IMG/VR virus record: IMGVR_UViG_3300042691_046823
Source: a virus
DNA length: 64,000 nucleotides
Direction: 5' to 3' (one strand)
The notes below the pieces were generated by a model. It saw nothing but the letters and a program-made list of their open reading frames with translations, was not told where the DNA came from and ran no database searches. Below, piece by piece: positions 6,093 to 23,744 of this stretch. The translations under genes and the position numbers were made by a program. Numbering within the stretch: the stretch's first letter is position 1; every line of letters begins with the position of its first letter.

Positions 6093-7217
6093 ATGCGAGC
6101 ACAAGAGTTTATCCTCGAAGACACAATGCCCGAACTGGAGTATGATCGCAGTTTCAACTACTCCGAAGAACGCAATGGTATAAAATTACGAGCCTGGATC
6201 GAAGAAGCAGGTAGATTAGAAATTTCAGCTTCAATTGATGACCAAGAAGTTGGCAGTGTGTCATTTATAAACCTTGGTGATCATTTACAAGCCAGCACAG
6301 CCGAAGTAAAACCAGAATACCGTCGTCGAGGCATTGCTCGAATGATGTACGATTTTGCTGAAGAACTGGGCAACGATATAGAACCCAGCCACGCACTCAC
6401 TGATCCGGGCAAAGCATTTTGGAGAAACAGAGATCCCGAAGCAGATATCGTTGAGTCAGTGGACTTTGAACAAATGCCAGCACAGCAGATCATAGCAGTA
6501 GCACAAGATGCGTTTGCCCAACTATACCCAGATGTCAAACTGTATGGTCGGTCGGTGGTAGAAGGTGTGGGATTGACCACAGCCAAAGGACAACAAGGTG
6601 CAGCCAGTGCGTTTGCTGGCAGTGATACTGTGCGTGGAGCATTTTATCTCACACTCAATGCCTATGCCGAAGGCGAGTCGATGATTGTTGTGATAGAAGA
6701 TGCCACAGCCGGTCAGTACAAAGGTGCTGCCACTGCTGTGATTAAATCTTTGTTTGCAGCCGGTGAAAGACTGTACAAAACACAAAATAGAGAATTAGTC
6801 GTCAACGACAATGCCAATGCGGAAGCATGGAGTGTGATTGCCGATCGTGTGGGTGCAGAGATGATGGAATCTCAGATGGTCGAATCTGAACAACCATCAA
6901 CACCAACGACAGCATATCATATCACTGGCCTTGAAAACGCAGAAGAAATCATGTACAAAGGATTGGACCCCCGCGATGGCAAAGCATTCTTAGTAGTAGA
7001 CGAGGGCAATCAAAAGAAGTTGCGTGACGAAATATATCAAGTGGCCGGTTGGATAGGAGCCAAAGCCTACGACTCGGATGAAGAGTTGACCTTGTTGCAA
7101 GTTGATATCACTGGGCTTCCACTGGAATACCAATATGGTTGGCACTTTTCAACTGTGCGAATTCCTCCCAATCGCATACGAGATTTGGGACCCGACACCC
7201 TTGCAAGGTACGTATAA
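6093..7217 (+). CDS. MRAQEF-leader polyprotein: GNAT acetyltransferase + C-terminal ART/Tpt1-like domain
   Basis: VKPEYRRRGIARMMY acetyl-CoA motif A; AYHIT...I...GL, LLQVD, IPPNRI pattern of ADP-ribosyltransferase-fold proteins. Confidence 0.65.
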   Translation: MRAQEFILEDTMPELEYDRSFNYSEERNGIKLRAWIEEAGRLEISASIDDQEVGSVSFINLGDHLQASTAEVKPEYRRRGIARMMYDFAEELGNDIEPSHALTDPGKAFWRNRDPEADIVESVDFEQMPAQQIIAVAQDAFAQLYPDVKLYGRSVVEGVGLTTAKGQQGAASAFAGSDTVRGAFYLTLNAYAEGESMIVVIEDATAGQYKGAATAVIKSLFAAGERLYKTQNRELVVNDNANAEAWSVIADRVGAEMMESQMVESEQPSTPTTAYHITGLENAEEIMYKGLDPRDGKAFLVVDEGNQKKLRDEIYQVAGWIGAKAYDSDEELTLLQVDITGLPLEYQYGWHFSTVRIPPNRIRDLGPDTLARYV

Positions 7218-7561
7218 TGAGAGCCTTGGAATTCATCATGACCGAAAACAAAGACCTTGCCAGTTTCCTGGCACAGAAGAGTCCCGTGGTCACCTTGCCT
7301 GCTGACAGTGCCCGGGCACAGATATTTTCACCCGCAGATCGTGCGGCCGTGGAACGCTTGGTGCCCGCAGTGCGTGGTCAAACCGATCACGAAGCATTGC
7401 AGGCCGGCAAAGAGTTGCTGGAAAAGTTCCTAAATCGCATCAAAGTGGGAGAGCCTCTGCCTCGCCAGGATCTCCGAGTGACGCAAGGGCTTTACGACAT
7501 CATCCGGCGACACACTGACCGATATGACTCATTCATGCGACAGCATGGTCTGGATGAATGA
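7217..7561 (+). CDS. MRALEF-leader hypothetical protein
   Basis: Start reassigned to ATG 7217 (TAATG overlap with upstream stop), giving MRALEFIMTE. Confidence 0.7.
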   Translation: MRALEFIMTENKDLASFLAQKSPVVTLPADSARAQIFSPADRAAVERLVPAVRGQTDHEALQAGKELLEKFLNRIKVGEPLPRQDLRVTQGLYDIIRRHTDRYDSFMRQHGLDE

Positions 7562-8140
7562 ATGAGAGCCCAGGATTTTATCTCCGAAGTCAACTATCCT
7601 GACGAACTCACAGTCAGCGATAGGATCCAAAACTATTTCTACCAGCGTGGCTATGACTTGGCCGGCGAAGGACGTGATCAGATGGCTTTTGAAAGTCCTA
7701 GAGGAACCATCGTCAAAGTGCTGGGCACAGGAGATATGGAACGTGAAGACATAGTCAAGAACTATGTTCGCTTCTTTGAAAAGAATCAACGGAATCCCTA
7801 CTATCCCAGGATCTACAACTCGGGCAATTTCACCGTAGATGGTGAAACTTACTTTGTGTATGAAATGGAACGAGTAAACTATGTGGCCAACGAAGAAGCA
7901 ACCCTGGACTACATAGAAAAACTAATGAGTGCTGTAGACCGCGAACAGGGCGAGCAGTTTTTACAACGTAATCCTGTGCCTGCAGAGATGAACGAGGAAG
8001 AAATATTTGGACTGATACAAGCCACCGAAGACATGATACAGGTCTTGGGCGGACAGGCACCTTTGGACTTGTCAGCCGTAGAAAATCTTGGCCGTAGGAA
8101 TAATGGCCATCTTGTTATAGTGGATCCCTACAGCCTATGA
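7562..8140 (+). CDS. MRAQDF-leader protein-kinase-like enzyme
   Basis: Gly-loop AGEGRDQMAF, VKV lysine, YEMERV hinge, DL...N catalytic loop, IVDP metal-binding Asp. Confidence 0.6.
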   Translation: MRAQDFISEVNYPDELTVSDRIQNYFYQRGYDLAGEGRDQMAFESPRGTIVKVLGTGDMEREDIVKNYVRFFEKNQRNPYYPRIYNSGNFTVDGETYFVYEMERVNYVANEEATLDYIEKLMSAVDREQGEQFLQRNPVPAEMNEEEIFGLIQATEDMIQVLGGQAPLDLSAVENLGRRNNGHLVIVDPYSL

Positions 8141-8718
8141 GAGCAAAAGATTTTATATCCGAAGTGAAGATACTCAACAAAGTCAAAGGCAAAGGCGATC
8201 AGCCCAGCATGTTGCCCAAGCGCGGCCAAGCCATACGTCCCAACGAAGAAACGCGATATCTCGGTCAACAAGTGGGCAAGATCGCAGGTTACCCTTTGTA
8301 TCGAGACTATCTGGGTGGACAGGTCAGTTACCAACTGTTTGATCCCAAAAGCCGTACCGTGATCGTGGTGGCCTTTGGCAGCCGATATAAAGGCAACCCC
8401 AACTCACTGATCGTGGCCGGGCTCTATGCGGCACCGGGCAATCCCGTGCGTGCCGCCAAGTTCTATCGTGGTCTCATCTTGGATCAAGGCCTGACCTTGA
8501 TATCAGATCGCAATCAGAGTCCCGGTGGTCAGCGTGTGTGGCAGCAGTTGGAAGGTTACCCTGACATCGAAGTCTATGGATATGACACGCAAACTGGTGA
8601 AATCTTAAACTTTGGCGCACGAGATGCAGAGATGTATGCTGTGCCCGCAGATGCCGCACGAAACCGCGAAAGTCGGTATATCGCACGCAACATAAGATTG
8701 GCGGCCACGAAAAAATGA
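8137..8718 (+). CDS. MRAKDF-leader protein, divergent GNAT-like
   Basis: LISDRNQSPGGQRVWQQL resembles the C-terminal motif of phage GNAT-like domains; ATGA overlap. Confidence 0.5.
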   Translation: MRAKDFISEVKILNKVKGKGDQPSMLPKRGQAIRPNEETRYLGQQVGKIAGYPLYRDYLGGQVSYQLFDPKSRTVIVVAFGSRYKGNPNSLIVAGLYAAPGNPVRAAKFYRGLILDQGLTLISDRNQSPGGQRVWQQLEGYPDIEVYGYDTQTGEILNFGARDAEMYAVPADAARNRESRYIARNIRLAATKK

Positions 8719-9425
8719 GAGCACAAGAGTTTGTAATCGAAGCCAAGCCCGGTGTGAACATCAACACTGCGAGATCCATTGCCGGCGACATACACGATCA
8801 TGTGTTAGATCTCAATGTCCATATGCGGCAGTATGGTAATGATCAACTTTTCCAGCGTCTCAGAGCCGAAACACAGGCCATGATGCAAGAACTCAATGAT
8901 CTTGGCTATGAATATGATCCTGGCAGTGCTGGATATCTCCGTCCTTTGACCATAGACTCCAAGTTACACGAAGCCCGGCACGCTGATGCCCGCACTGAGA
9001 TCGAAAACATGGCCACCATATTGCCGGGATCACCGGACGAATATTTCGTGCGCTTCACGGATCAAGACAAGGTGGGATTTTCAGCAAGACAACACTTTGG
9101 TCGCACTCCTGACATCGACGATCCTGACTTTGATCCGTTGTCACTGCCACGTCCGGGAGGTCGACCCGCACTGTGGTTTTATCCTCTGCGCACTTATCTA
9201 CAGGGTGGTGATCTGTTTGCCAGCCAGCATCCTTACACCTGGTTGGTACGCATACGCCCTGATGCTTGGTTGCAACGTGTGGGCCGAGACCAGAAAACTG
9301 ATGCGCCTCAAGGTAAGACACGAGTGGGCATGATACGACGTGATCAAGGTTTTCCCATAGCCATATTCTTCCGACCAGCCTTTGATGTGGTAGATCGCTG
9401 GTATCAAAAAAACCAAACAAATTAA
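8715..9425 (+). CDS. MRAQEF-leader hypothetical protein
   Basis: 236 aa ORF, ATGA overlap, leader MRAQEFVIE, internal LHEA junction. Confidence 0.7.
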   Translation: MRAQEFVIEAKPGVNINTARSIAGDIHDHVLDLNVHMRQYGNDQLFQRLRAETQAMMQELNDLGYEYDPGSAGYLRPLTIDSKLHEARHADARTEIENMATILPGSPDEYFVRFTDQDKVGFSARQHFGRTPDIDDPDFDPLSLPRPGGRPALWFYPLRTYLQGGDLFASQHPYTWLVRIRPDAWLQRVGRDQKTDAPQGKTRVGMIRRDQGFPIAIFFRPAFDVVDRWYQKNQTN

Positions 9426-9473
9426 CCTGCTGTTTGCTATCCTGATAAACACATATATTCAACAGGGTCAAAG

Positions 9474-10052
9474 ATGAAAAAAATAGCCATCACTGGTCAC
9501 ACATCGGGCATTGGACGTGGGTTGACACAGGCACTGTCTGCCAAAGGACACAGCGTGATTGGCCTCAGCAGGACCAATGGCGGCGACATCAGTCAGATTG
9601 ATAAAATATTACCTTTGATCTTAGACTGCGATATTTTTATAAACAATGCACAACAAGATTTCAATCAGACTGATTTGTTGTATGCAGTTTGGGATCACTG
9701 GCGAACTTTGCCTAACAAACATATCTGGTGTATGAGCAGTATGATGACACTATATAGCACCCAAAACAATAGAGATGATGCATCGTCCGTGCAGGCCAGC
9801 AGATATCGTAATCAAAAAATTTCATTGGAAGACGCTTGTTTTGAATTACAGGCCAAATCAGCCTGGCCGGATATCGTGGTGATGCGCCCTGGGCCCGTTG
9901 ACACACCGGGTTGCACCAACCCACAAACCACTTGCGCACATGTAGACACCTGGTGCGAAACCATGTTGGACATAATCAGACTTACCGAAAGTCGTAATTT
10001 ACGCATCAGAGAAGTCAGCCTCAAAGGAATAGGGCAAGGCATAACTATATAA
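9474..10052 (+). CDS. Short-chain dehydrogenase/reductase
   Basis: ITGHTSGIG Rossmann motif, NNA, YxxxK (YRNQK). Confidence 0.8.
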   Translation: MKKIAITGHTSGIGRGLTQALSAKGHSVIGLSRTNGGDISQIDKILPLILDCDIFINNAQQDFNQTDLLYAVWDHWRTLPNKHIWCMSSMMTLYSTQNNRDDASSVQASRYRNQKISLEDACFELQAKSAWPDIVVMRPGPVDTPGCTNPQTTCAHVDTWCETMLDIIRLTESRNLRIREVSLKGIGQGITI

Positions 10053-10072
10053 AATCAGCAGGAGATCACGCC

Positions 10073-10495
10073 ATGTCACCTTACAACCAGAGACGTATAG
10101 TCGGTTACACCGGTATCGCATTTTTGTTAGCTATACTGCTTACAGGTTGTGCCCTGTTTCCATCTATGTTTGATGCCAATGAACATGCTCGCATAGTCAA
10201 CATACACGTGGCTGCCATCGATGATTCCGTATGCAATCGGAGAGAAGCAGCCGCACCTGTGGCACAACAGATGTATCAGGACGCTCGTTGGGTCTGGCAC
10301 TATGGACAGCATCTATCGGACAACGAAAAGATGACCAAGATGGAATTGGAACTCATGCAGATCACCAAGGAACTCGCAGACAGGTACGAGAGCACTGCCA
10401 CAGTGAGCGTATTCTACTGCAAGAACAAGTTTGAAAACATCCGTCTTGCCACGGATACCATAATGAAAGTTTCGGCCCGGAGACCCAGATCATGA
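10073..10495 (+). CDS. Putative lipoprotein
   Basis: Hydrophobic signal ending in lipobox LLTGC; SD AGGAG. Confidence 0.65.
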   Translation: MSPYNQRRIVGYTGIAFLLAILLTGCALFPSMFDANEHARIVNIHVAAIDDSVCNRREAAAPVAQQMYQDARWVWHYGQHLSDNEKMTKMELELMQITKELADRYESTATVSVFYCKNKFENIRLATDTIMKVSARRPRS

Positions 10496-10737
10496 TGAAC
10501 ATAGACACGGTAATACACAACTTCTTGCAACAAAATACAGCACTGTCACAGCGCATGCAACAGGCTTTGTCCTACAAGGCTGCAGCCGAAGCCGGTGAGA
10601 TGAGTGCTGACGAATATCAAGCACTGATGACAGATCTGCAACGGCTGGACCAAATACAACTGAGTGCAGATGAACTGGATCAACAGATAGCTTTCAACAA
10701 TATCATCAACGCTTTGAAGTCAGTGCCGCTGCCATAA
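10492..10737 (+). CDS. Hypothetical protein
   Basis: 81 aa helical ORF coupled by ATGA overlap. Confidence 0.6.
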   Translation: MMNIDTVIHNFLQQNTALSQRMQQALSYKAAAEAGEMSADEYQALMTDLQRLDQIQLSADELDQQIAFNNIINALKSVPLP

Positions 10738-10753
10738 AATAAACTACTCGCAT

Positions 10754-10805
10754 TTGTCTACCCCTGGCTGACTGTAAATAATAAGTCGCCTTAGGAGCTA
10801 GACAA
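10754..10805 (+). promoter_or_regulatory. RBS-occluding hairpin with late promoter TAAATA in its loop
   Basis: TTGTCTA 10754-60 pairs TAGACAA 10799-805; CCT/AGG, GGC/GCC, GACT/AGTC inner pairs; TAAATA 10775-80. Confidence 0.7.
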
Positions 10806-10807
10806 CT

Positions 10808-11371
10808 ATGACTATAAAAAAATTCTGGGCGGGCGTAACGATATCTATCTTCGCGTCTGTTGCCATGGCACAGACCGATCCGATTATAACGCAAAGCACC
10901 AGCACATCGACAAGCACAACCAATGGAAAAAGTGAGACCACTGTGAAGTCTCCACCTCCCACGGCCGTGGCACCTGCTATCAGTTCAATGAACTCAGATC
11001 TGTGTGCGGTGGGCGTGTCAGGAGCGGCACAAACACAGATCCTTGGCATAGCCATTGGGTCAACATTTACAGACAAGAACTGCGAACGATTAAAACTGTC
11101 TAAGAGTCTCTACGACATGGGCATGAAGGTAGCAGCCGTGGCCACACTATGTGGTGACGAGCGTGTGTTCGAAGCCATGATGAATGCTGGTACACCCTGT
11201 CCCGTAGAAGGCAAGATCGGTGCCGAAGCCAAGGTCATATGGGAAGAGCGTCGCAATCCCAAAAAGCCCGAAACACGCCCTGTGGCACAGACAGACAAAA
11301 AGGACAAGTGGACCTGTGAATCCTATGCAGGCGATGACGACCTGGTGCGGAAACGCCTGGGCTGTAAGTAA
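10808..11371 (+). CDS. Secreted Cys-containing protein
   Basis: Signal peptide ending AMA-Q, S/T-rich linker, several Cys; SD AGGAG. Confidence 0.65.
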   Translation: MTIKKFWAGVTISIFASVAMAQTDPIITQSTSTSTSTTNGKSETTVKSPPPTAVAPAISSMNSDLCAVGVSGAAQTQILGIAIGSTFTDKNCERLKLSKSLYDMGMKVAAVATLCGDERVFEAMMNAGTPCPVEGKIGAEAKVIWEERRNPKKPETRPVAQTDKKDKWTCESYAGDDDLVRKRLGCK

Positions 11372-12921
11372 TGAACATCTGGCTTCGTTTCTGGATCTAC
11401 TGGGCCCTATTGACCTTTGGGTTCTGGTTGAGTTATCCGGCCTATGGCCAGACAGCCACGACCAATCTCATCAACCCTGCTGGCACGGCCTGGGGCATAC
11501 CCAATAACCAAGTCATGAACTCTGCAGGTATCGGTGCCATAGAAGGTGCTGGACCTACCACGGGTTCGGCCTACTACAATCAAGATACCAACACCATCAG
11601 ATTTTCATATATGCCTAGCACAGTGGCACAGAGCATTGCCATTACCAATGCTTTGGCCGGTAACGGCATCAAGTGGCTGGGCTATGACTATGCCTGGTCG
11701 ATCATGAACGGTGGCCAGGCCGCTGGCCCGCTGTCAGCAAACATCAGTCTCATGCAGAACAAATCGGTATTGGAAACATTTTCCTATTCATATGCAGCCG
11801 GTGGCCAACCTGCTGGTATTTTCGTCACCTATTCTGGTCGGCAACTTTTTTCCCAAAGCGGTGGCTACACCACTGGACAAGTAAGCAGTCTGGATATGTC
11901 ATGGACTGGACAAGACAGTTTGTTCTGGATGGGACTGTATGGACCGAGGGTGCGAGACACCAATGTGCGGCTGCTGTATGGGGTGGATCAGTGTGCCACC
12001 AATCCCTTGAGCGATCCCACTTGTTCGGGCTATGCACAGGCCTTGTTGACACAACAATGCACAGCCAATCCATTGACAGATCCTTCCTGTCCAGGGTATG
12101 CAACCGCACTTTTTACGCAACAATGCACAGCAAATCCATTGTACAATGCTACCTGCCCTGGATATCAACAGGCCTATTTCAATCAACAATGCACAGCCAA
12201 TCCCTTGTATGATCGATCATGTCCGGGATACAACACTGCTTATGCCCTGCAACAACAATCCACACAGTCCACTGCCACTGCTTCTACTGCCTCCACCAGC
12301 ACCACCACGGTATCTGTCACAGGCACTGTTTCCACAACAGAACCTACCATAACCATTGCTACCGACGGCACGGTGACCACAGGAGTGGCAGTGGTTCCTG
12401 ACAGTGAGGTCAATACCGTGGTGACTAAAAAAATTGAAAGCACAGCCAGTCCCACTGGCTCAGTGACCCTGCAGGTACAGACCAAGGCACAGGAAGAAAG
12501 CGAAGAAGAACGACGCCGCAGGCTGCGAGCAGCCACTGACGCCGAGCGTGAGATCGCACTCAAAGAAGAAAAGAAACGCGAAGAAGAAGCCAGCGAGCGT
12601 AGGAAAGAACTTGCTGCCAAGATGCGAGCGGCAGCACAAGAAGCCGCTGTGGGCCGAGGCCGCGAAGCCATACGGGATGCCGATCGTGCCCAGACCCTGG
12701 AACAACAAGTGGCCAATCAGGCTTTGATCGTGGCCACCATGAACTTCGTTCCCGGCTTTGAAAGTTACGGTGTGGCTCGACTACCCGACGCACCAGGATA
12801 TCGTCCCTATGAGATATATCGCGGCCAACAGCCAGTGGACAACCGTAGACTATTACGCGGGCTCACAGGTGCTTCGGACCAACGGCACGCCGAAATGGTA
12901 GACAGCCAGTATGGGAGGTAG
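11371..12921 (+). CDS. Secreted/membrane protein with four Cys-pair repeats, T-rich linker and coiled coil
   Basis: N-terminal hydrophobic segment; QCxxNPLxxxxCxGY x4; charged helical region. Confidence 0.7.
   Translation: MNIWLRFWIYWALLTFGFWLSYPAYGQTATTNLINPAGTAWGIPNNQVMNSAGIGAIEGAGPTTGSAYYNQDTNTIRFSYMPSTVAQSIAITNALAGNGIKWLGYDYAWSIMNGGQAAGPLSANISLMQNKSVLETFSYSYAAGGQPAGIFVTYSGRQLFSQSGGYTTGQVSSLDMSWTGQDSLFWMGLYGPRVRDTNVRLLYGVDQCATNPLSDPTCSGYAQALLTQQCTANPLTDPSCPGYATALFTQQCTANPLYNATCPGYQQAYFNQQCTANPLYDRSCPGYNTAYALQQQSTQSTATASTASTSTTTVSVTGTVSTTEPTITIATDGTVTTGVAVVPDSEVNTVVTKKIESTASPTGSVTLQVQTKAQEESEEERRRRLRAATDAEREIALKEEKKREEEASERRKELAAKMRAAAQEAAVGRGREAIRDADRAQTLEQQVANQALIVATMNFVPGFESYGVARLPDAPGYRPYEIYRGQQPVDNRRLLRGLTGASDQRHAEMVDSQYGR
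11989..12231 (+). repeat. Four tandem 66-nt (22 aa) coding repeats
   Basis: Units start at 11989, 12055, 12121, 12187 (caatgcacagc.aatcc.ttg; first unit more diverged). Confidence 0.9.
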
Positions 12922-12923
12922 AC

Positions 12924-13133
12924 ATGGAATACTCACTGCTGTTCCAGGCGTTCATGGTTTTCTATCTCTTGGAGATTGCATTCATAGCGGTGTTTGTGTA
13001 CATGATGTCTCGAGAATATCATATAGAAGAGCAACAACAGGCCATAGAACTGGCTCGAAACACAGGACCGTCGGCCAGTGATCTCATAATGATGAGACAA
13101 AAAATGCGAGAATTACAAAGACAACAAGAATAA
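12924..13133 (+). CDS. Small membrane protein
   Basis: One N-terminal TM helix; SD GGAGG. Confidence 0.6.
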   Translation: MEYSLLFQAFMVFYLLEIAFIAVFVYMMSREYHIEEQQQAIELARNTGPSASDLIMMRQKMRELQRQQE

Positions 13134-13145
13134 AGGAGTCGTAAA

Positions 13146-13625
13146 ATGTCAGAAGAAATCAAGGATGTAAACAAAAAGATTGATGCCGCAGAAGCGGCCG
13201 TGAAGAAGTACGCCAGCAAGGACACAGTGATCTCCATTGGAGGCTACGAGTTCACTCCGGCTAAACTTATGGTAGCAGCCACCATAGTGAGTTCAATCCT
13301 GGGCGGACTCTACGGTACTTTTGAAGTGTACAAGAGTTACCAGGACATGAAGACCAAGATCGAGAAGTATGTGACCCCGGATCTCACGGAAATCGAAAAG
13401 AAACTGGCCATCGTGGAAGAAAACAGCCAGAAGTCATCGGACTACACCAGAGATATCAAGAACGATCTCCGTGCAGATATCCGCAAATTGGAAAAGATCG
13501 TGGACGATGTAGAGCGTAGTAGCAAGCAGAGCCAGCGTGAGCAAGAGCGTGATCTGCGTGAGCTCCGCAAAGAAATCGACGCTAAAATACAAAAAGCACT
13601 GGACAACCCACTGGCGGGCAAGTAA
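13146..13625 (+). CDS. TM-anchored coiled-coil protein (inner-spanin-like architecture)
   Basis: TM LMVAATIVSSILGGLYG followed by long heptad region; SD AAGGAG. Confidence 0.5.
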   Translation: MSEEIKDVNKKIDAAEAAVKKYASKDTVISIGGYEFTPAKLMVAATIVSSILGGLYGTFEVYKSYQDMKTKIEKYVTPDLTEIEKKLAIVEENSQKSSDYTRDIKNDLRADIRKLEKIVDDVERSSKQSQREQERDLRELRKEIDAKIQKALDNPLAGK

Positions 13626-13631
13626 ACCATC

Positions 13632-13672
13632 CACTGGTAAATACTCCAAGATAATAGGAGCAGACACCAGTG
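13632..13672 (+). promoter_or_regulatory. Start-codon/RBS-occluding hairpin containing TAAATA
   Basis: CACTGGT 13632-38 pairs ACCAGTG 13666-72 (includes GTG start); CTCC 13644-47 pairs GGAG 13657-60; TAAATA 13638-43. Confidence 0.7.
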
Positions 13673-13945
13673 AACGATAAAAAGCTTTTCAAATGGGTGA
13701 TTTTGTTGATCCTGGCACCCTTAACACTGGCAATATTCGGTGGCGATAACTTCCGATACCCATGCCAGGATCCCGCCAATTGGGACAAGGATTTCTGTAA
13801 AAAACCCCAGTGTGATGTTACCCGCACTTGCCCTGAGCACATATTCAAAGGACAGAGAGATCCTCGCCAAGGCATGCCCACGGATCAACAACCCACAGGC
13901 ACCCCCGTTGCCGCACAACCTCGTCAAGGAGCAGAATGTAAATGA
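13670..13945 (+). CDS. Small exported Cys-rich protein
   Basis: Signal/TM then FRYPCQDP...C...C...CPE; GTG start with SD AGGAG. Confidence 0.6.
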   Translation: MNDKKLFKWVILLILAPLTLAIFGGDNFRYPCQDPANWDKDFCKKPQCDVTRTCPEHIFKGQRDPRQGMPTDQQPTGTPVAAQPRQGAECK

Positions 13946-14472
13946 AAATATTAGACAAAATCTTAGACCGTGCGTCTGATAACACACCACCAGAAACTTT
14001 TATGTATACCGAAGAGCAGCTCATGGCCCGGCTCAAGTTTTTCATAGGCATCTGCCTGGCTCTCACGCTGGTAGGCATCGTGTTCGTAGTTCTATACAGC
14101 ATTATTTTTGTCACCCAACCGCTGAATGCTATCAGTCCCATTGATCAGAAGTTCTTTGAACTGATCATACCCATAGCCACGTTCCTCACAGGTACCTTGA
14201 GTGGTATCATGTTGGCCGGCAATGACAAGGATTTGAAAGCCAAGGCCCTGGACGCTGCCGCGGGTGCTGTGCCTCAGGCACGACCAGTGAGTTCCATGCC
14301 CACGACACCCGCCATGGGTGGGTTTGGCACATCGGGTATGCCACCAAGACCCGCTATGCCACCGGCTGCACCCATGGGCATGCCCAGCATGCCACCACCA
14401 CCTCCGGGTGCAGCTCCTGTGAGTTCGGCACCACCAGGACCTCCTAACCTACCGCCTCCACCGGTGTTCTAA
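13942..14472 (+). CDS. Two-TM membrane protein with Pro-rich tail (holin-like topology)
   Basis: Two hydrophobic helices; P/M/A-rich C-terminus. Confidence 0.55.
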   Translation: MKILDKILDRASDNTPPETFMYTEEQLMARLKFFIGICLALTLVGIVFVVLYSIIFVTQPLNAISPIDQKFFELIIPIATFLTGTLSGIMLAGNDKDLKAKALDAAAGAVPQARPVSSMPTTPAMGGFGTSGMPPRPAMPPAAPMGMPSMPPPPPGAAPVSSAPPGPPNLPPPPVF

Positions 14473-15086: not shown

Positions 15087-15140
15087 GCTGGTTCAAACAC
15101 AGCCCACGTCGATCATTAAATACTAATATAAAGGATTCCT

Positions 15141-15455
15141 ATGAGAAAACTCATGCTCCTGGTCTTATTAGGCCTGAGTCTGCCTGCACAAGCGAACGAG
15201 TGGTTCGAAAGTCAGAAACCAGTGACCTGCGGCCCGTTCCGGGAAATAGTGCAGACCCTGACACTGGAGCAGTATGAAGAAGCACCCATCTGGATTGGCC
15301 AAAGCAGTGCTGATCGCACGCAGTTCAGCCTTTTTATCAATGCCGGTACAGGTACATGGACCTTGGTGCAGTATGGGCAGATCACGGGCTGTATCATTGG
15401 TGTGGGGAAGAATCACCGCATGATTGATCCTGCTCAATTCAGCAAATCACATTAA
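15141..15455 (+). CDS. Small secreted protein
   Basis: Signal peptide (AQA-N), two Cys; TAAATA at 15117-22 upstream. Confidence 0.6.
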   Translation: MRKLMLLVLLGLSLPAQANEWFESQKPVTCGPFREIVQTLTLEQYEEAPIWIGQSSADRTQFSLFINAGTGTWTLVQYGQITGCIIGVGKNHRMIDPAQFSKSH

Positions 15456-15462
15456 ATACTCT

Positions 15463-16251
15463 ATGCTCCTCAACGAACTGTTTACCAATGTCAGCGAAGT
15501 CACCAAGGATGAGATAGAAAAACCGCATCTCTATCTCGACATGGACGGTGTGCAAGCTGATTTTTTTACACAATGGGCCCGTTGGCACAACAAAAAATTT
15601 GGTATGAGCCATGTAGAGCGTTACAAAGATATCGGGTCAAAAGAACAGCGTGAACAGAGCATTTCAGAACTGTCAGCCGAAGGTCCGGAATTCATTGAAC
15701 GATTCTTTGCTACTTTGCCTACCTTGCCCGGCGGCCAGAAACTCATACGCTGGTTGAGACAAAATCGCATACCTTTCACTGTGCTCAGCGCACCCTTGCG
15801 CGGCATGAATGCACCCAGCATCGCTGGTAAAAAAATCTGGTTAGATTCTCACAATCCCGGCACATCGGGATCAGCCATATTCACCGGAGACAAAGCACGC
15901 ATGGCTACCACAGGTGGTCGACCCAATGTCTTGGTTGATGATTTCAAAAAATACGTAGGTGCCTGGCAGGATGCTGGTGGCATAGGCATACTATATCGAG
16001 ACAGCAACGTGGATGATGCCATAGCACAGCTGGCCAAGATTTACGGTGTGAACATGACAGAATCGCAGGATTTTCAGAGCCACGCGGCCCGACTCAAAAC
16101 CTACAAAGTCACCCTAAAAATATCGCAAGGGGCCGCTTCACAGCGCATGGATACCACTGTGGTGGCACGCAATCCTGAACAAGCCAAACGCATGGTGGCA
16201 CAGCAATATGGAAAAAACATTGTAGTCACACGACCGATAGAACTGCGATGA
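15463..16251 (+). CDS. HAD-family 5'(3')-deoxyribonucleotidase with N-terminal leader
   Basis: YLDMDGVQADF motif I, LSAP, K, LVDD motif IV; start moved to ATG 15463 (MLLNELF), 4 nt after TAAATA. Confidence 0.8.
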   Translation: MLLNELFTNVSEVTKDEIEKPHLYLDMDGVQADFFTQWARWHNKKFGMSHVERYKDIGSKEQREQSISELSAEGPEFIERFFATLPTLPGGQKLIRWLRQNRIPFTVLSAPLRGMNAPSIAGKKIWLDSHNPGTSGSAIFTGDKARMATTGGRPNVLVDDFKKYVGAWQDAGGIGILYRDSNVDDAIAQLAKIYGVNMTESQDFQSHAARLKTYKVTLKISQGAASQRMDTTVVARNPEQAKRMVAQQYGKNIVVTRPIELR

Positions 16252-18224
16252 GAGCCAGAGAATTTATCGTCGAAGTCAGCGACGAACGTTTACAAAATTA
16301 TTTGAGCCGCGCTGGACAACAGGTTGATCGTAGAATGGAAAAAATGGCCCAGGTCAGAGATAGACTCAACAAGGGCTACGAAATATACCACGCTGAAGAT
16401 CCCACTCGCATAGTCCATAGATTTGAAGCTGGCACACCTGCCGAAGCACGACGCTATTATGAAAAATACAATACCAACTATGAAAGTGACCGTGATTACG
16501 ATTTGAAACTGCGTCGAAGCACAGGTTTGATGGAAGATGCATTTCGTGGCATAGATATATCTATGGAACGCGACGATGACGAAATCATGGTGCGAGCGTC
16601 AACAGGTGACAAGCAGTTGGGATCCGTGCTGTTCGTGGACTACGACGGTGAGTTGATGCCACAGGATCTTGAGGTGGATGAACGCTATCATGGCCAGGGC
16701 ATCGCCCAGGCCATGTATGACTATGTGAAAAGCCTGGGTTATAAGATACGCAGGAGTGGCCAGCAGACCGATGCTGGTGCTGGCTTTTGGGCCAAACATC
16801 GACCCGATAGCAATGTGTGGGAACAGGGTGTCTCGGAAGGCTCCTTGAATGAATATCGTGATCAACTTTGGGCTTGGATTCAGTCTAAATTTCCAAGCAC
16901 ACAATGGCCTGAATATGTGCAACGAGATTTTTTATATGCCAAGGCAAAAGGAAATCAAAATCAAAAAGATTTAGAAGATTTTTCAGATGAGATACAGCGA
17001 GATTTTGGTCGAGTGAGATGGCGATTGGAAAAACTGCCCATCACACTTGACATCTTTACACCCAAAACTCAACGAATGATCAAAGAGCGTGAAGGTGGTT
17101 CGAGTAATCCATATCAAGTGCCCAAAGATACCGAACGCCACGCATTACAACAAAAAATGATCCAACAAAAAGGGGTAAGCCAAGAACCTATCATTGTTGC
17201 TAAATTGAGCAATGGTTATGATTTGATTGAAGGGTGGCATAGGACCATCCAACATCTAAAAGCGTATCCCCAGGGGTATACTGGACCTGCCTGGGTAGGT
17301 TATGGGGCGACTTATACAAGTGAATCAAAACAAGGTGTGGCGGAAGGCACCGATGATATCAAAAAGAAAATGTCAAAATTGGAAGCACTGGCCCTGGCTG
17401 CAAATCGTGCCGGTGATGATGCAAAATGCAAAATGTATCAGCAAAAGATTCAATCACTTAAACAAAAATTATCTAAAGATATGTCAGCAGGTGTCACGGA
17501 AGTAAAGATAGGCCCCGAAATCACTGGCCGCAGCCTATTGTTCAAAGCAGCGGCCATGGCCATGAGAGATGCCGGACGTGAAGGCATAACTCTGGACTAC
17601 GACCAGGCCATCAAGCAAGCCAGCCGGATCTATGGAATACCTTACCAACCCAGTGAACTGCCAAAACTGTTAGCCCAGCGAGCAGAAATAGATCGTCAGT
17701 TGGCTCTGCTAAAGCAAGGCAAGCAAGTGGCCAAGCAACGTAGGCAAGAAAAACGGGCACCCACACCAGCCGGTGCCGAAGAATACTGGCGCACACATGC
17801 TTTACCCACGGACCGTATCAAACCTCCGACCAAGACTCTGGAGGAAATGCAAGAAACTCCACCCGAAGTGCTACGAGCCTTGGATCAAGCCGCACAGAAG
17901 AATGGTTATAAGAACTGGGCAGATGTCAAGGCCAATCCTAGAAGTAACCGTGCAGTGATAACTGTGGCCAAGCTGGCCAACGAAATCATGAAGACCACTG
18001 GCCCGCATCATGAAAAAATATTCTACAAAAGCAAGACCGACGAGAACTTTGCTGATGGCAAAGTCAAGGGAAAAAGCAGACCAGGTCGTGTGAAACGTGC
18101 AGGTGCCAGTTGCAACGGAAGTGTAACTGATCTACGAGCCCGTGCTAAAAATGCGTCGGGCGAAAAGGCCAAAATGTATCACTGGTGTGCCAACATGAAA
18201 TCCGGCAAGAAAAAAAGCAAATAA
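16248..18224 (+). CDS. MRAREF-leader polyprotein: GNAT + ParB/Srx-like + basic C-terminal module
   Basis: VDERYHGQGIAQAMY; EPIIV...LIEGWHR; linkers QGVSEG, QGVAEG, AGVTE. Confidence 0.7.
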   Translation: MRAREFIVEVSDERLQNYLSRAGQQVDRRMEKMAQVRDRLNKGYEIYHAEDPTRIVHRFEAGTPAEARRYYEKYNTNYESDRDYDLKLRRSTGLMEDAFRGIDISMERDDDEIMVRASTGDKQLGSVLFVDYDGELMPQDLEVDERYHGQGIAQAMYDYVKSLGYKIRRSGQQTDAGAGFWAKHRPDSNVWEQGVSEGSLNEYRDQLWAWIQSKFPSTQWPEYVQRDFLYAKAKGNQNQKDLEDFSDEIQRDFGRVRWRLEKLPITLDIFTPKTQRMIKEREGGSSNPYQVPKDTERHALQQKMIQQKGVSQEPIIVAKLSNGYDLIEGWHRTIQHLKAYPQGYTGPAWVGYGATYTSESKQGVAEGTDDIKKKMSKLEALALAANRAGDDAKCKMYQQKIQSLKQKLSKDMSAGVTEVKIGPEITGRSLLFKAAAMAMRDAGREGITLDYDQAIKQASRIYGIPYQPSELPKLLAQRAEIDRQLALLKQGKQVAKQRRQEKRAPTPAGAEEYWRTHALPTDRIKPPTKTLEEMQETPPEVLRALDQAAQKNGYKNWADVKANPRSNRAVITVAKLANEIMKTTGPHHEKIFYKSKTDENFADGKVKGKSRPGRVKRAGASCNGSVTDLRARAKNASGEKAKMYHWCANMKSGKKKSK

Positions 18225-18242
18225 AGCCACGGTAAATACACC

Positions 18243-18536
18243 GTGAAAACTGCGTTCGTCAAAGTGTTATTCGATCTTGATTGCGATTGGGAAGGATTGC
18301 CTCCAGTGTATCGCATATATGTCAACGACGAGATGTTCGCAGAGCGCACCTGGATATGGACCAATCATTATCTCGAAGAAATGTTGCAGATCAATGCGGC
18401 ACCGGGCCAGTACAAGATCCGAGTAGTGCCCGTGGGACCAAATCTTGCGGAATTTCGCCCCAGCAACTGGCGAATAGAAGTAGGGCCGGCACGCTGGGCC
18501 AAGAAAGCCCTGTTGGAGGTATTAGATGAGAGCTAA
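18243..18536 (+). CDS. Hypothetical protein
   Basis: GTG start 4 nt after TAAATA (18233-38); beta-rich 97 aa. Confidence 0.6.
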   Translation: MKTAFVKVLFDLDCDWEGLPPVYRIYVNDEMFAERTWIWTNHYLEEMLQINAAPGQYKIRVVPVGPNLAEFRPSNWRIEVGPARWAKKALLEVLDES

Positions 18537-18702
18537 AGAATTCCTTCCGGAAAATGCCGCTGCCAGCACTACCAGTGCAGGTTCTATGGCACCTATATCT
18601 CAATCTTTAGGGTCATTGATCTCGCGCACGGGTTTTGGCAAACCTGCTAAATATATGAACAGTTTTAATCCTGCAAAGAAACGGAAACGCCATGTTGGTT
18701 GA
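18526..18702 (+). CDS. MRAKEF-leader micro-protein (58 aa; absent from the ORF track)
   Basis: Translated by hand: MRAKEFLPENAAASTTSAGSMAP...KKRKRHVG*; SD GGAGG upstream; fills the gap between neighbours. Confidence 0.75.
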   Translation: MRAKEFLPENAAASTTSAGSMAPISQSLGSLISRTGFGKPAKYMNSFNPAKKRKRHVG

Positions 18703-19132
18703 TGATTTAAAAACATTTTTAGGCAGCAGTTATGCGTATTTTACCAAGGCCTGGGGCTTCCACTGGAACGTGGAAGGATCTAACTTTGGTGAACTGCATG
18801 ATTTCTTTGCTGGCATCTACACTGATACCCAAGAAAGCATCGACAAGACCGCGGAATTCATCCGCACCACTGACGAATATGCTCCTGGCAGCCTTGAGCG
18901 TTTTCAAGAACTCAGCCAGATCACAGGACAGATCAAAGTACCGCGTGCCCGACTCATGCTTACTGAGTTGCTGGCCGACACGCAGACCATGATCGATCTA
19001 AGCAAGACCCTGTTCCAATCTGCTTCGCAAGAAGGTCGTGAAGATATTTCCAACTTTGCTGCCGAGCGCCAAGAAGCGCATGGCAAGTATGCCTGGCAGA
19101 TCAAGTCATATCTCAAAGAGGCTCGTGAATGA
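18692..19132 (+). CDS. dps: Dps/ferritin-like DNA protection protein
   Basis: HWNVEGSNFGELHDFF...D..AE ferroxidase signature; 146 aa. Confidence 0.85.
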   Translation: MLVDDLKTFLGSSYAYFTKAWGFHWNVEGSNFGELHDFFAGIYTDTQESIDKTAEFIRTTDEYAPGSLERFQELSQITGQIKVPRARLMLTELLADTQTMIDLSKTLFQSASQEGREDISNFAAERQEAHGKYAWQIKSYLKEARE

Positions 19133-20049
19133 GCCACGATATCTATCAGATTCTCGAGAATCTTGATGCCGCACAGCGCCGAGCAAAACAATTGCCTGCG
19201 CTGTTCAAACCACCACAGACATCACCACAACTCGCCGGTCCGTATCCGGGGCAGAATGCCACTCGAGGCTATCTCGTAGGCGAAGGTGATGATGCTCCTC
19301 AAGTCAATCGTGGTGGGTATAATAAATTACGCGATAAAGATGATTATCTCGACAAGAGAGATTTGCTGTATCGCCTTATGACACAACCTGGTACCGACAG
19401 CGAGACCAAGGCCGAAGCCAAAGAAAGATTATCTGCCTTGAACCAAGCAGCCATGCAACAAGGCATAATCAAAGAAGGCGAAGATCGCAATCCCATGGCC
19501 CGGGCCGTCACACGCCGGATAGCACATGCCCATCCCGAGTGGCTTACACGCTATGGCGTAGAAGCTGTGCTCCAGGCCATTGACGATGTCACAGAAGACA
19601 ACATGGACTGGGAAGAAATTGGGTCAAGCGATGTGTCGGCCTATGTGAACTATGTCAAATCGGCCCTGGATGACCGCATGGTGGGCCGCGAAGACATGTC
19701 CGAGGCCAAAGAATCAGCCACAGAAGATGTTATCAGCACAATGAAGAAAAAACTGGACAACTACCTCCAGGACGTGGCCACTGCCATCAAAACAGACCCT
19801 GATCTCAAAGACAAGTTATCGCAAGACATAGATCAGATCTCGGCCGTGAAAACTTTGACCACAGATGATGGCAAAGAAATCAAGATACGTGGCAACGAAG
19901 ATGATGGTTTCCGTATCAGCATCCGCAACAAAGACCTGCCCACAGCATTCAAGTCCTTGGATGAGGCTGTCATGGCCTGTGAGATGTACAAGACTCGCCG
20001 CCGACAAGCCTTGGAAACAGCTGATTACATAGAAGAAAAAAGAACATGA
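19129..20049 (+). CDS. Hypothetical modular protein, probable virion internal protein
   Basis: MSHDIYQILE N-terminus; internal LVGEG, IKEGE, MSEA junctions. Confidence 0.6.
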   Translation: MSHDIYQILENLDAAQRRAKQLPALFKPPQTSPQLAGPYPGQNATRGYLVGEGDDAPQVNRGGYNKLRDKDDYLDKRDLLYRLMTQPGTDSETKAEAKERLSALNQAAMQQGIIKEGEDRNPMARAVTRRIAHAHPEWLTRYGVEAVLQAIDDVTEDNMDWEEIGSSDVSAYVNYVKSALDDRMVGREDMSEAKESATEDVISTMKKKLDNYLQDVATAIKTDPDLKDKLSQDIDQISAVKTLTTDDGKEIKIRGNEDDGFRISIRNKDLPTAFKSLDEAVMACEMYKTRRRQALETADYIEEKRT

Positions 20050-22139
20050 TATTAGACGATATATTTGAAGCCCTCAAGCCCAGCGACATGCCTACATACC
20101 TGCGCAGGCAAGCAGGCCGTCCCGATCTCACCCTGCGTGACATTGACAAAGAACGACCACAGAGCGCATATCGTTATAAGGTAGGCGACAAAGAATTCAT
20201 GAGCCTGGGGCCTGCCGCGGAGTATGCCAAAGGTACTGGACAATCTGTGCAGACCATCAAATTGGATGAGCAAGGGCAATCCGATCCCAATGTCATACGC
20301 GGCATGGAGAATCTGCGCAACCTTGAAACCAATGCCAAAAACGACATCTCTGTGTACATCAAAAATCAGACCGGTAGAGTCAAATACCAGGTCAAGTTAC
20401 CCGGTGACAAGGAGTGGGTCATAGGTCATGCCAAGGAGTGGACTGACGCTGGCAAGGCACAAGATCTCTATCGTTTCATGGGCACAGCTGAAGGATTTGA
20501 TTTCCTACTCAGCGCCTGGGAAAAGGAAGATGCTATCAAAGCCCGTGCCCAGCAGGCACAGCAAGATGTCGAACCTGCTGCCGGTGATCTCTTCTCTCCC
20601 ACGCAATCCGGTGGCGCAAAAAGTCCTCGACGACAGGACGAAACCACCCTTCCTCAAAAAAAAAGATCTGAAGTAGCAGAAGCACCTGCCGGGGCTCAAG
20701 GACGTACCGAAAGGATGATGTCCAAGATGCGGGCAAGGCAACCTCAAGCCACGTCTGATGTGGAAGCTCTGGCCTACGAACTCGAAGACGCCGAGCGTCG
20801 TGACAGCCAAGAAATCAATAAATTAGAAAAAGAAGTTGACAATCTCGAAACAGATATCAAGTCAGATCTGCAAAAACGCATCGCCACCTTGACAAAACGC
20901 CGTGGTGGTATACAACAAGCTGTTGAAAAAGATACCAAGACAGACGCGGTGTTAGACCAACTATCACGAGTCAACGATGAACAACAAAAAGAAATCAACA
21001 GTCTTGAAAAAGCAGTGGCCAATCTATCTGATATCTCTAAATCTATAAAGGTATCAATACCCAAGAGCGAGCCGGACAAAGCCCCCGCGATCAAACCAGT
21101 TGCTACGCCCCGTGTCGTGCTACCTACGATCAAATCTCAAACCCCCACTGCTCCTGCGGCAGCTGCTCCTGTGAAATCAGAACCTGTGTCGATTTCTCCG
21201 GCATCGACAGCAGATGAGTTAGCGGCCAATGAGCCGGCCCTTGATCCGGCACAACGCCGACAGCGTTTTTCTTTAGTACAACAAGCGGCTGAATCAACCA
21301 CCGAGGGTATCATGGATCGCGTTGGTCGGGCTATTGGATTTCAGCCAACGACCAATCCTTTTAGAGATCTAACATCCGCAGAAAAAGCGATGAATATTAG
21401 ATCTAATGTGGCCACATCAGCCAAAGCCATGGGCAATCAAGGCGCTTATCGCCAGCAACAACAGGCCCTGCAAAACCTGGCCCAGTCAGAAAAACTCAAG
21501 ATACAAAATCAAATCGCAGATATACAAAAGCAAATCAAGCAAGCAAACATTTCCGGGGACATCGACAAGGCCAGAGAACTACAACGACAATCCACGATGT
21601 TGCGACAGCGAGCTGGAATGTTCAAACAAGATGTAGCATCGGCGAGAACAGCAGCCGGCACAATTGCTCCAAAATCATCTACACCACCTGGGGGTGCTGG
21701 CGCATTTGGTAGCATGGTGGGACAGCTCACTGGTACTCCTATGCCCGCTGCCACAACCGGATCTGCTGCCCCAGCGGCAGCGACCAAGGCGCCTGTTACT
21801 GCCCAAACGCCGACCACGGTGCCGACACAGACAGGAACCTGGCGCATGGGGCAACCAATCACAGTGGGAGGGCAGGTTATCAGCCCACGTGATCCCAACT
21901 ATCAAAAAATAGCACAGCAATTGGTCAAGCAAGGTGTAAAAGAGCAACAGATCAATGAAAAGAAAAAAAGACCCACACCAACCAATCCAGGTCTCTGGAG
22001 CAGGGCAAAGTCTGCAGCCAGATCCAAGTTTGATGTGTATCCATCGGCCTACGCCAACGCATGGGCAGCCAAATGGTACAAATCCAAGGGCGGTGGATGG
22101 CGCATGGGCAAAGGACCTAAAAAAGGAGCTGAAGAATGA
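20046..22139 (+). CDS. Modular coiled-coil protein with basic C-terminal module
   Basis: MILDDIFEA N-terminus; VAEA, TTEG, INEK junctions; C-terminal KFDVYPSAYANAWAAKWYKSKGGGW. Confidence 0.65.
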   Translation: MILDDIFEALKPSDMPTYLRRQAGRPDLTLRDIDKERPQSAYRYKVGDKEFMSLGPAAEYAKGTGQSVQTIKLDEQGQSDPNVIRGMENLRNLETNAKNDISVYIKNQTGRVKYQVKLPGDKEWVIGHAKEWTDAGKAQDLYRFMGTAEGFDFLLSAWEKEDAIKARAQQAQQDVEPAAGDLFSPTQSGGAKSPRRQDETTLPQKKRSEVAEAPAGAQGRTERMMSKMRARQPQATSDVEALAYELEDAERRDSQEINKLEKEVDNLETDIKSDLQKRIATLTKRRGGIQQAVEKDTKTDAVLDQLSRVNDEQQKEINSLEKAVANLSDISKSIKVSIPKSEPDKAPAIKPVATPRVVLPTIKSQTPTAPAAAAPVKSEPVSISPASTADELAANEPALDPAQRRQRFSLVQQAAESTTEGIMDRVGRAIGFQPTTNPFRDLTSAEKAMNIRSNVATSAKAMGNQGAYRQQQQALQNLAQSEKLKIQNQIADIQKQIKQANISGDIDKARELQRQSTMLRQRAGMFKQDVASARTAAGTIAPKSSTPPGGAGAFGSMVGQLTGTPMPAATTGSAAPAAATKAPVTAQTPTTVPTQTGTWRMGQPITVGGQVISPRDPNYQKIAQQLVKQGVKEQQINEKKKRPTPTNPGLWSRAKSAARSKFDVYPSAYANAWAAKWYKSKGGGWRMGKGPKKGAEE

Positions 22140-22240
22140 AAAATTTTGAAATCAAATTACAAGGGGCCTGGCACAGAGTGACAGCACCCAGCCTGGCTGC
22201 TGCCGTGCGCATGGTAAGACAACAACTGGGACTGGCATGA
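22136..22240 (+). CDS. 34-aa micro-protein (absent from the ORF track)
   Basis: MKNFEIKLQGAWHRVTAPSLAAAVRMVRQQLGLA*; SD AAGGAG; ATGA overlaps at both ends. Confidence 0.6.
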   Translation: MKNFEIKLQGAWHRVTAPSLAAAVRMVRQQLGLA

Positions 22241-22644
22241 GAGATCTCATCAATCTCATGGAAGCAGTGAGCCAAGGTTGTCCTGAGGCAACTCGGAGCA
22301 TCGATGTGAATCTTAAAAATCGGCAAAAGGCCATAGATGAATACGGCTATGGACCCTTGGATCCAGGACAACCCAATGACGAATTTTGGCAGGCCAAGGC
22401 CGAAGAATGGAACATGGACGATCCCGGCCAGGCTCGGACAGCTCTTTGTGGCAATTGCGCCGCTTTCGACAAAAGTCCCGATATGCTCGATTGCATAGCC
22501 AAGGGTATCGGAACCGAGCCTGGGTCGGACCCCATGAGCACCATAGATGCCGGCGATCTTGGATATTGCAAGTTCTTGAAATTCAAGTGCGCGGCCAAGC
22601 GCACCTGCGATGCCTGGGTCGAGGGTGGACCCATCGTAAAATGA
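22237..22644 (+). CDS. Cys-rich protein with leader
   Basis: MRDLINLMEA; CGNC...GYC...C...TC metal-binding pattern. Confidence 0.7.
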   Translation: MRDLINLMEAVSQGCPEATRSIDVNLKNRQKAIDEYGYGPLDPGQPNDEFWQAKAEEWNMDDPGQARTALCGNCAAFDKSPDMLDCIAKGIGTEPGSDPMSTIDAGDLGYCKFLKFKCAAKRTCDAWVEGGPIVK

Positions 22645-23105
22645 GAGCACAAGAATTCATCATCGAAGGTGCTTACCAAGGTGGACTGCGTAAATGGTTC
22701 AAACAGCGGTGGGTCAACATCGGCAAAAAGAAAAAAGGTGGCGGCCATCCTGAATGTGGGACATCTGGCAAGAAAAAGGGCTATGCCAAATGCGTGCCCG
22801 CTGCCAAGGCTGCGGCCATGAGCGACAAACAAAAGGCGTCGGCCGTGCGTCGCAAACGACAAGCGCAGGGCAGGGCTGGCAAACCAGGCAAAGACGTAGG
22901 TGGTGGCGGTAGAAAGCCAGTGCGTGTGGCTACCAAAACAAACGAAGAACAATTAGACGAGTTGACTTTCAAGGGCAGTCCGTGTACAGTAGACTGTAGT
23001 GGTCACAGAGCCGGTTATGAATGGTATAAACGTAAAAGACGCACCCCAAATTCCTGGAGCCCCAGTTTCAACAACGGGGCAGCCATCGCTGCCGCAGGAA
23101 AATGA
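22641..23105 (+). CDS. MRAQEF-leader two-module basic protein
   Basis: Start reassigned to ATG 22641 (ATGA overlap); GLRKWFKQRWV module, then LDEL junction and CTVDCSGHRAGY module. Confidence 0.75.
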   Translation: MRAQEFIIEGAYQGGLRKWFKQRWVNIGKKKKGGGHPECGTSGKKKGYAKCVPAAKAAAMSDKQKASAVRRKRQAQGRAGKPGKDVGGGGRKPVRVATKTNEEQLDELTFKGSPCTVDCSGHRAGYEWYKRKRRTPNSWSPSFNNGAAIAAAGK

Positions 23106-23174: not shown

Positions 23175-23744
23175 ATGAACATTCGTGATCTTGCAGAAAG
23201 CAGTGGTTACAGTTTAGCCGGGAGTTTCACACGAGATCTCACTGCCAGCAAGGTCTGGCTGATCAGTGAACTGGCTCGCATCCAGCCTCGAGTAGGCACT
23301 GTGTACGTGTTGGGATCATGGTTCGGCAATATCAGCCTTTATCTAAAGTTAATGGATGTCCTGGATCACGGTAAAATAATCAATGTAGAACGAGACCGAG
23401 ACATGCTACGCCAAAGTCAGCGCATGCTGGATCACATCGGCGCACAAAACGTGAATCATGTATTGGCCGATGCCAATGACATCGATTACCGCCAACTGGC
23501 CAATGATGGTGTGATCATCAACACCAGCCTCACAGACATGCCAGGTCGAATATGGTTTGATAACATCCCCCAGGGCACTCTGGTGGTCATGCAAGCCAGA
23601 GATCATGACTCCGGCAGACAGTTTAACAGCACCCAAGACATCTTGGATCGATATCCCTTAGCAGAACTTAATTACCAAGGAGATCTCGACTTACAAGATC
23701 CCGAAACCAAATATACCAGATTCATGGTCATAGGACGCAAGTGA
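23175..23744 (+). CDS. Class I SAM-dependent methyltransferase-like protein with leader
   Basis: MNIRDLAES; VYVLGSWFG motif I, INVE, ADAN, INTS, RFMVIG. Confidence 0.6.
   Translation: MNIRDLAESSGYSLAGSFTRDLTASKVWLISELARIQPRVGTVYVLGSWFGNISLYLKLMDVLDHGKIINVERDRDMLRQSQRMLDHIGAQNVNHVLADANDIDYRQLANDGVIINTSLTDMPGRIWFDNIPQGTLVVMQARDHDSGRQFNSTQDILDRYPLAELNYQGDLDLQDPETKYTRFMVIGRK

Follow-up and report, generated by a model that had tools for sequence, protein, structure and literature searches.

The question raised by this locus is why a set of phage genes with mostly unrelated bodies should begin with almost the same nine amino acids. The locus belongs to IMGVR_UViG_3300042691_046823, a 64,000-nucleotide stretch of DNA from an uncultured phage (hereafter the window), whose genes are almost entirely on the + strand. 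Eight of its open reading frames (ORFs), starting at positions 6093, 7217, 7562, 8137, 8715, 16248, 18526 and 22641, are headed by a leader that starts MRA and ends in Glu. It is likely, in our view, that this leader is a T4-style capsid-targeting propeptide removed by an S77 prohead protease, and that the T4 arrangement is here extended to enzymes and to multi-module proteins that can be cut apart. The original prediction had proposed a portable tag similar to the T4 capsid-targeting sequence (CTS), ending in a prohead-protease site and carried by a defined list of enzymes. The tag agreed with every comparative test that was run, namely its similarity to the T4 CTS, the protease of the relatives, the cut motif at module joints, a leader-free homologue in a non-T4 phage, the types of cargo and a late-promoter-like context, whereas the list of enzymes was right only in part.

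A six-frame search of the 64 kb with the pattern MRA.[ED][FILVM] returned exactly eight matches, at the same eight coordinates that had been reported, all on the + strand and each starting an ORF of 58-658 aa. Seven of the eight leaders read MRAx[E/D]F[I/V/L]xE and end in [I/V/L]-x-E at residues 7-9, with Val counted besides Leu and Ile; the leader at 7217 (MRALEFIMTE) is one residue longer and ends I-M-T-E. Chance makes a negligible contribution, since a slightly looser pattern matches only 0-1 of the ~500-2100 internal Met positions per genome and a reversed-pattern control gave no match in ten related genomes. As the original prediction had noticed, the peptide is spelled with different synonymous codons: Arg is AGA in seven leaders and CGA in one, Ala is GCA in four, GCC in three and GCT in one, the Glu or Asp at residue 5 is GAA in four, GAG in two and GAT in two, and Phe is TTT in five and TTC in three. 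No conserved sequence was found upstream of the eight leader ORFs. With the leader removed, BLASTP finds the bodies unrelated, as had been claimed, except for those at 6093 and 16248, which have a GNAT cassette in common (36% identity over 78 aa). The looser versions predicted on neighbouring ORFs were recovered at 5202, 15463, 20046, 22237 and 23175, and the predicted absence of the motif from later ORF starts was borne out, with no ORF after 24 kb headed by the strict leader or by the loose leader pattern.

The internal proteins of phage T4 offer a precedent. In the T4 record ipII and ipIII start MKTYQEFIAE. The first ten residues of IPIII are enough for packaging, for targeting residues 4 and 7 count most, for processing residues 8 and 10, and gp21 of T4 cuts after L/I-x-E (PMC9026906). 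T-even phages have diverse internal proteins, with only the CTS conserved (PMC3012670). The leader described here is likewise a short N-terminal tag on unrelated bodies, with the core E-F-I-x-E and the L/I-x-E cut rule; also as in T4, the lineage has a head module with an S77 protease (in relatives), a cargo set that varies among related phages and an ADP-ribosyltransferase in its cargo. When leader and CTS are aligned on EFIxE, F7, I8 and E10 of T4 are kept as Phe6, Ile/Val/Leu7 and Glu9, whereas Tyr4 is without a counterpart; the CTS is one residue longer and reads MKTYQEF where the lineage consensus is MRAxEF. Unlike the T4 sequence, the leader stands on many more proteins (eight in the window and at least 29 families overall), including enzymes and multi-module chains with the cut motif at their joints, and it has been found only in uncultured jumbo phages, where it is known from sequence alone. 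A control search of T4 with a loose 10-residue pattern matched ipII, ipIII and gp61.1 and missed ipI.

The window is itself part of an uncultured jumbo (giant) phage with a T4-type replication core. Its family B DNA polymerase (28442-31108) is nearest to those of the jumbo phages Phosso (49%), Atu_ph07 (46%) and the Rak2/CBB group (~42%), and a nucleotide search of the leader-rich island against cultured phages gave no match. Relatives were picked up through the 658-aa protein at 16248-18224. Four related genomes of 320-355 kb were read at full length (G001-G004), of which G001, G003 and G004 have the exact leader and G002 does not. All four have their head genes in T4 order: portal, a 72-aa small core protein, a core protein of ~280 aa, Peptidase_S77, scaffold and a gp23-type capsid protein. 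A Peptidase_S77 gene is present in nine of nine scorable large related contigs (190-525 kb) that bear the exact leader, the gene of G001 lying at 84690-85328; none was seen in G005, which is 62% complete. The check that revealed the protease and the T4 head gene order was made in these relatives.

The cut-site half of the leader can be followed best in the cargo protein at 7562-8140, in which the leader MRAQDFISE is joined to a 183-aa protein-kinase-like body (phrog_15752, E 2.8e-6, a T7 gp0.7-type PHROG family). The AlphaFold2 (AF2) model (pLDDT 80) shows a bilobal protein-kinase-like fold with a conserved Lys and Asp/Asn. Foldseek places APH(2''), SRPK and PknB as its top matches (probability 1.0, E ~1e-5, TM ~0.4). 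K52, D169, N175 and D188 are invariant and may be catalytic residues. In all 108 database homologues the three residues before the kinase body are [ILV]-x-E, against a background of 0.016 per position. This body sits directly behind the leader in 37 of the 108; in the remaining 71 it is preceded by modules of at least eight kinds (GNAT, ParB-like and others), and 63 of these 71 fused forms start with an MRAxEF-type leader. Some fused or multi-module forms retain MRAxEF and lack Glu9, which suggests that address and cut site are separable.

The same motif appears to mark the joints of the longest tagged product. The gene at 16248-18224 encodes the leader MRAREFIVE and a 649-aa multi-module protein with GNAT, ParB-like and basic C-terminal modules. 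The tblastn homology blocks of this protein end at the [ILVM]xE sites 96, 192/197/202, 366, 418 and 533, but not at three further [ILVM]xE sites that lie within domains. Its basic C-terminal module of ~60 aa (ENFADGK ... KMYHWCANMK, window 18030-18221) is an observation in its own right, since more than 590 IMG/VR stretches carry it at 80-98% identity. A Glu precedes it in every case, and it occurs on proteins of 65 to 2082 aa, most of which begin M-[RK]-x-x-[DE]-hydrophobic; the module had no match in 50,697 cultured phage records and belongs to no Pfam or PHROG family.

Cleavage after Glu is also known from another group of large phages. In phiKZ, 201phi2-1 and SPN3US a gp21-related protease cleaves many of the head proteins behind a Glu, the propeptides are not kept and a large amount of protein is ejected (PMC9026906). 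However, these proteases prefer a small residue at P3, the third before the cut (S/A-x-E), whereas P3 is Ile, Leu or Val in the 108 of 108 joints and in the leaders here, as in T4. A cleavage motif of the phiKZ/SPN3US type was accordingly set aside. These phages, which are not T4-core phages, have no single short N-terminal leader in common.

A second likeness to the T4 head comes from the lineage's own capsid protein. In relatives this protein reads ..TRKYLKE and then NASAGSTSAGNIA, ~41 residues ahead of a conserved GVQPM (for example L092:6455-7651), and by our own residue count the TRKYLKE end falls near the position aligned with Glu65 of T4 gp23, where gp23 is cut (after FLTE65). The smallest tagged protein of the window (18526-18702) consists of the leader MRAKEFLPE and a very basic 49-aa peptide whose start is like the N-terminal arm of the relatives' mature capsid protein; it and its family read MRAKEFLPE and then NAAASTTSAGSMA. 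By the likeness of these two boundaries, the leader Glu lines up with the site at which the capsid protein is likely to be matured. The start of T4 gp24, MAKINELLRE, is in the same register. Beyond this boundary, the 58-aa protein reads NAAASTTSAGSMAP after its leader, similar to the relatives' capsid protein after ..TRKYLKE, and its family (58-72 aa) looks as if the N-terminal arm of the capsid protein had been copied and given a tag.

That the leader is a portable add-on to its bodies is indicated by comparing these bodies with their homologues. The gene at 22641-23105 encodes the leader MRAQEFIIE and a basic 145-aa body (pI 10.5). Its homologue in the podovirus Pelagibacter phage HTVC023P, gp52, begins at the conserved domain, without a leader. 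The protein at 8715-9425 (leader MRAQEFVIE, 227-aa body of unassigned function) has its C-terminal part in common with a leader-bearing gene of G001 (G001_291389), and in the window protein ~80 more residues separate this domain from the leader. In the DUF6267 family the leader is MRAFEFLTE in most contigs and a T4-like MKTYTEYLVE in one. Residues 1-16 of the AF2 model at 7562, including the leader, are disordered, and the kinase fold begins after residue 16.

The leader is widespread beyond the window. Exact counts are 4, 0, 3, 4 and 4 in G001-G005 and 2-6 in five further contigs (191-525 kb), and in these large contigs the exact leader always starts an ORF on the coding strand. The eight strict leaders of the window, compared with 2-6 exact matches per related large contig, agree with the claim that the cargo set is larger than the three internal proteins of T4. 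A scan of IMG/VR gave at least 157 leader matches in at least 119 loci, at least 153 of them heading ORFs of 50 aa or more, on bodies of at least 29 BLAST families. Among the matches listed, sequence conservation drops sharply past Glu9, and of 146 leaders 89 have Ile, 35 Leu and 19 Val at position 7, the search pattern having allowed any NTN codon at that position (3 of 16 such codons encode Ile). G002 (355 kb, with terminal repeats) bears variants in place of the exact leader, namely MRYQDFLAE, MRYSELIEN, MKSKDFLNE and MRYNELIEN at 28988, 30279, 34476 and 36719, on proteins of 434-759 aa. The leader type thus seems to drift between lineages, as the variants suggest. The exact leader was not found in Phosso, Atu_ph07, Vibrio phage 2.275.O or CBB, the cultured phages most closely related, in which a looser pattern gave near-chance counts only, and the leader strings were not found in the literature searched.

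The cargo of the relatives is also of a kind that would fit packaged proteins. Pfam searches with 64 larger leader proteins of related contigs identified GH19 (6) and DUF6267 (6), as well as LysM, phage tail lysozyme, ADP-ribosyltransferase, amidoligase, GNAT, ParB_N and Kinase-PolyVal. The ADP-ribosyltransferase (like T4 Alt), Kinase-PolyVal, amidoligase, ParB_N, GNAT and lysozyme types would all be at home in a virion. The most conserved leader cargo is a tandem paralogous pair of ~125 aa ending SPVxAFKGYPR, seen for example at G001 134261-135015 (L094:14261-15015) and in many IMG/VR loci. The leader is on 70 of the 76 members of this family among those listed. In G001 the pair is surrounded by probable tail genes, a label given to these genes from their N-termini only; its AF2 model is poor (pLDDT 62) and mostly disordered, and the pair was not seen in the 64-kb window.

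The gene context, too, is in favour of a capsid tag. In each of the genomes G001-G004, 37-50 genes have the motif TAAATA[CT] in the sense orientation in the 40 nt upstream of them, compared with 5-10 in the antisense orientation, and the motif stands ahead of the sheath, fibre and head operons of the relatives (genes judged from their N-termini). It resembles the T4 late promoter, TATAAATA, and is probably the late promoter of this lineage, going by its placement. In the window a TAAATAC copy lies at 486-492 on the + strand, upstream of a large polyvalent gene, with further copies at 13638-13644 and 18233-18239; the motif is only 3-4 nt from the start codons at 497 and 18243.

Taken together, the following course of events can be envisaged. 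The MRAxEF part would bind the protein to the scaffolding core during prohead assembly. The [I/L/V]-x-Glu end would then serve as a cut site for the gp21-type (S77) protease, so that the tag is removed and the modules of multi-module cargo are separated. The mature GNATs, the small kinase, the basic DNA-binding-like proteins and others would stay in the head and would probably leave with the DNA at infection, a step for which T4 is the model, and they may have a role in host takeover. A more far-reaching version, which we hold only tentatively and somewhat short of an even chance, is a two-part code in which MRAxEF is the prohead address and [ILV]-x-Glu the cut, through which a whole lineage of uncultured jumbo phages would load and inject dozens of exchangeable enzymes and modules for DNA binding, as single genes or as chains that maturation cuts apart, among them a look-alike of the capsid protein's N-terminal arm and cargo whose TAT export signal becomes exposed on cleavage.

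Injected phage proteins act before phage gene expression, which makes them prime candidates for anti-defence and host-takeover functions, and they are hard to find without virion proteomics. If the leader is a capsid address, a simple sequence rule would list the packaged and injected proteins of a large group of uncultured giant phages, and under the two-part code an inventory of the effectors that any such phage ejects could be drawn up from its genome alone. The T4 principle would have been scaled up from three small internal proteins to plug-in enzymes and cuttable multi-module chains. The leader could, moreover, be put to use as a second natural tag by which foreign proteins are brought into T4-type capsids.

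Several observations weigh against a capsid-targeting propeptide. The T4 targeting residue Tyr4 is the one without a counterpart in the leader. The S77 protease is documented in relatives only, the ORFs of the window not having all been scanned for a protease. A loose form of the leader is also found on likely replication proteins, such as MRDYLLDLVE at 32085, and in T4 itself the uncharacterised gp61.1 (NC_000866 18966-19130, 54 aa), encoded beside the primase gene, starts with a CTS-like MKTFKEFIKE. The kinase domain itself may account in part for the [ILV]xE that precedes it, and the 108 homologues are related among themselves. The GH19 and lysozyme leader proteins could be ordinary endolysins. 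In two leader proteins (L171:2992-3609:+ and L224:3861-4493:-) a twin-arginine translocation (TAT) signal follows directly after Glu9 (…E-[IM]-DRRGFL…), and removal of the leader would make this export signal the new N-terminus. The key cargo families are without a match among 50,697 cultured phage records, and no cultured phage was found with the leader.

Some of these points lend themselves to another explanation, in which the leader is a recognition tag for a partner other than the capsid, for example a modifying enzyme or chaperone, or a system for export or localisation. The TAT signal right behind the leader in two proteins speaks for such a partner, as do the several leader proteins that are peptidoglycan hydrolases. 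An enzyme-recognition tag predicts a recurrent partner gene beside the leader genes, yet none of the non-leader gene families is found at more than 18 of the 119 listed leader loci, so no local partner is evident. The leader also ends in the gp21 cut rule, the same rule recurs at module joints, and the leader resembles both the T4 CTS and the cut region of the lineage's own capsid protein. We consider a tag for another partner rather unlikely.

It is also quite improbable that the leader is a protease-removable propeptide and nothing else, serving to keep an enzyme inactive or to mark a cut without any capsid address. The cut motif is admittedly the best-supported feature, and the multi-module forms with MRAxEF and without Glu9 show that the two halves can be separated. 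The same forms, however, argue that MRAxEF has a function of its own, and MRAxEF is far more conserved than a cut site needs, T4 gp21 requiring just L/I-x-E (PMC9026906). In T4 the prohead protease is active within proheads, so that its substrates have to be brought into them. Finally, a start conserved as a feature of DNA or mRNA, be it a gene-shuffling recombination cassette or a translation-initiation element, is very hard to credit: the island is hypervariable between relatives and many leader genes overlap the stop codon before them and show no clear ribosome-binding site, but nothing is conserved upstream, the same peptide rule holds at internal joints far from start codons, and we reject this reading because synonymous codons differ at Arg2, Ala3, Glu5 and Phe6 and because variants such as MKSKDFLNE and MKTYTEYLVE retain the chemistry and not the bases.

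A further known class lies close to these proteins. The polyvalent proteins of phages and conjugative elements, as Iyer, Burroughs, Anand, de Souza and Aravind reportedly described them in 2017, are single giant chains, often with a MuF-type head domain. They draw on the same domain vocabulary (Kinase-PolyVal, amidoligase, ParB, ADP-ribosyltransferase, zincin) and are thought to enter the host with the DNA. Here, in contrast, the modules are for the most part genes by themselves with a nine-residue tag each, or form short chains with protease motifs at the joins. None of the eight tagged genes (58-658 aa, in most cases one module) is a very large chain of several conflict-related enzyme domains, whereas their 1564-aa neighbour at 497-5191 (+) is one. 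This polyvalent protein starts MDLRELE, has an amidoligase domain among other modules and is the first gene of the island; in G001, G003 and G004 the same island, smaller there, likewise begins with its orthologue.

The remaining tagged proteins of the window are varied, and the predicted mature products range from very acidic to very basic. The ORF at 6093-7217 joins the leader MRAQEFILE to a 365-aa acidic body with an N-terminal GNAT domain (Pfam Acetyltransf_1, E 2e-5). It is followed at 7217-7561 by the 10-aa leader with a 104-aa body of unassigned function. The leader MRAKDFISE at 8137-8718 precedes a basic 184-aa body that is possibly GNAT-like, a lead that comes from language-model features only; the language-model atlas gave this weak GNAT lead for 8137 and nothing for 8715, and sequence searches of the PDB with four cargo proteins gave nothing useful. 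With respect to the cargo originally listed, two GNATs were recovered by Pfam and the kinase-like protein by its fold, whereas neither Pfam nor PHROGs found an ADP-ribosyltransferase-like protein in the window; an ADP-ribosyltransferase with the leader was found in a related contig. The nucleotidase and methyltransferase of the same list do exist, but under looser leaders. The former is an NT5C-type 5'-nucleotidase (15463-16251, +; E 5.7e-9) behind the loose 12-aa leader MLLNELFTNVSE, and the latter a weak methyltransferase-like body (23175-23744, +; E 0.002, below the Pfam cut-off) behind MNIRDLAE.

Three further + strand neighbours have loose leaders: MKIKQIIKE with a 285-aa body of unassigned function (5202-6086), MILDDIFE with a basic 689-aa body, also of unassigned function (20046-22139), and MRDLINLME with a Cys-rich 126-aa body (22237-22644). 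A ferritin/Dps-like gene (18692-19132; Pfam E 4.7e-15) lies within the cargo island, as does the NT5C gene, and among the IMG/VR loci listed a Dps-like gene also adjoins leader genes in ten.

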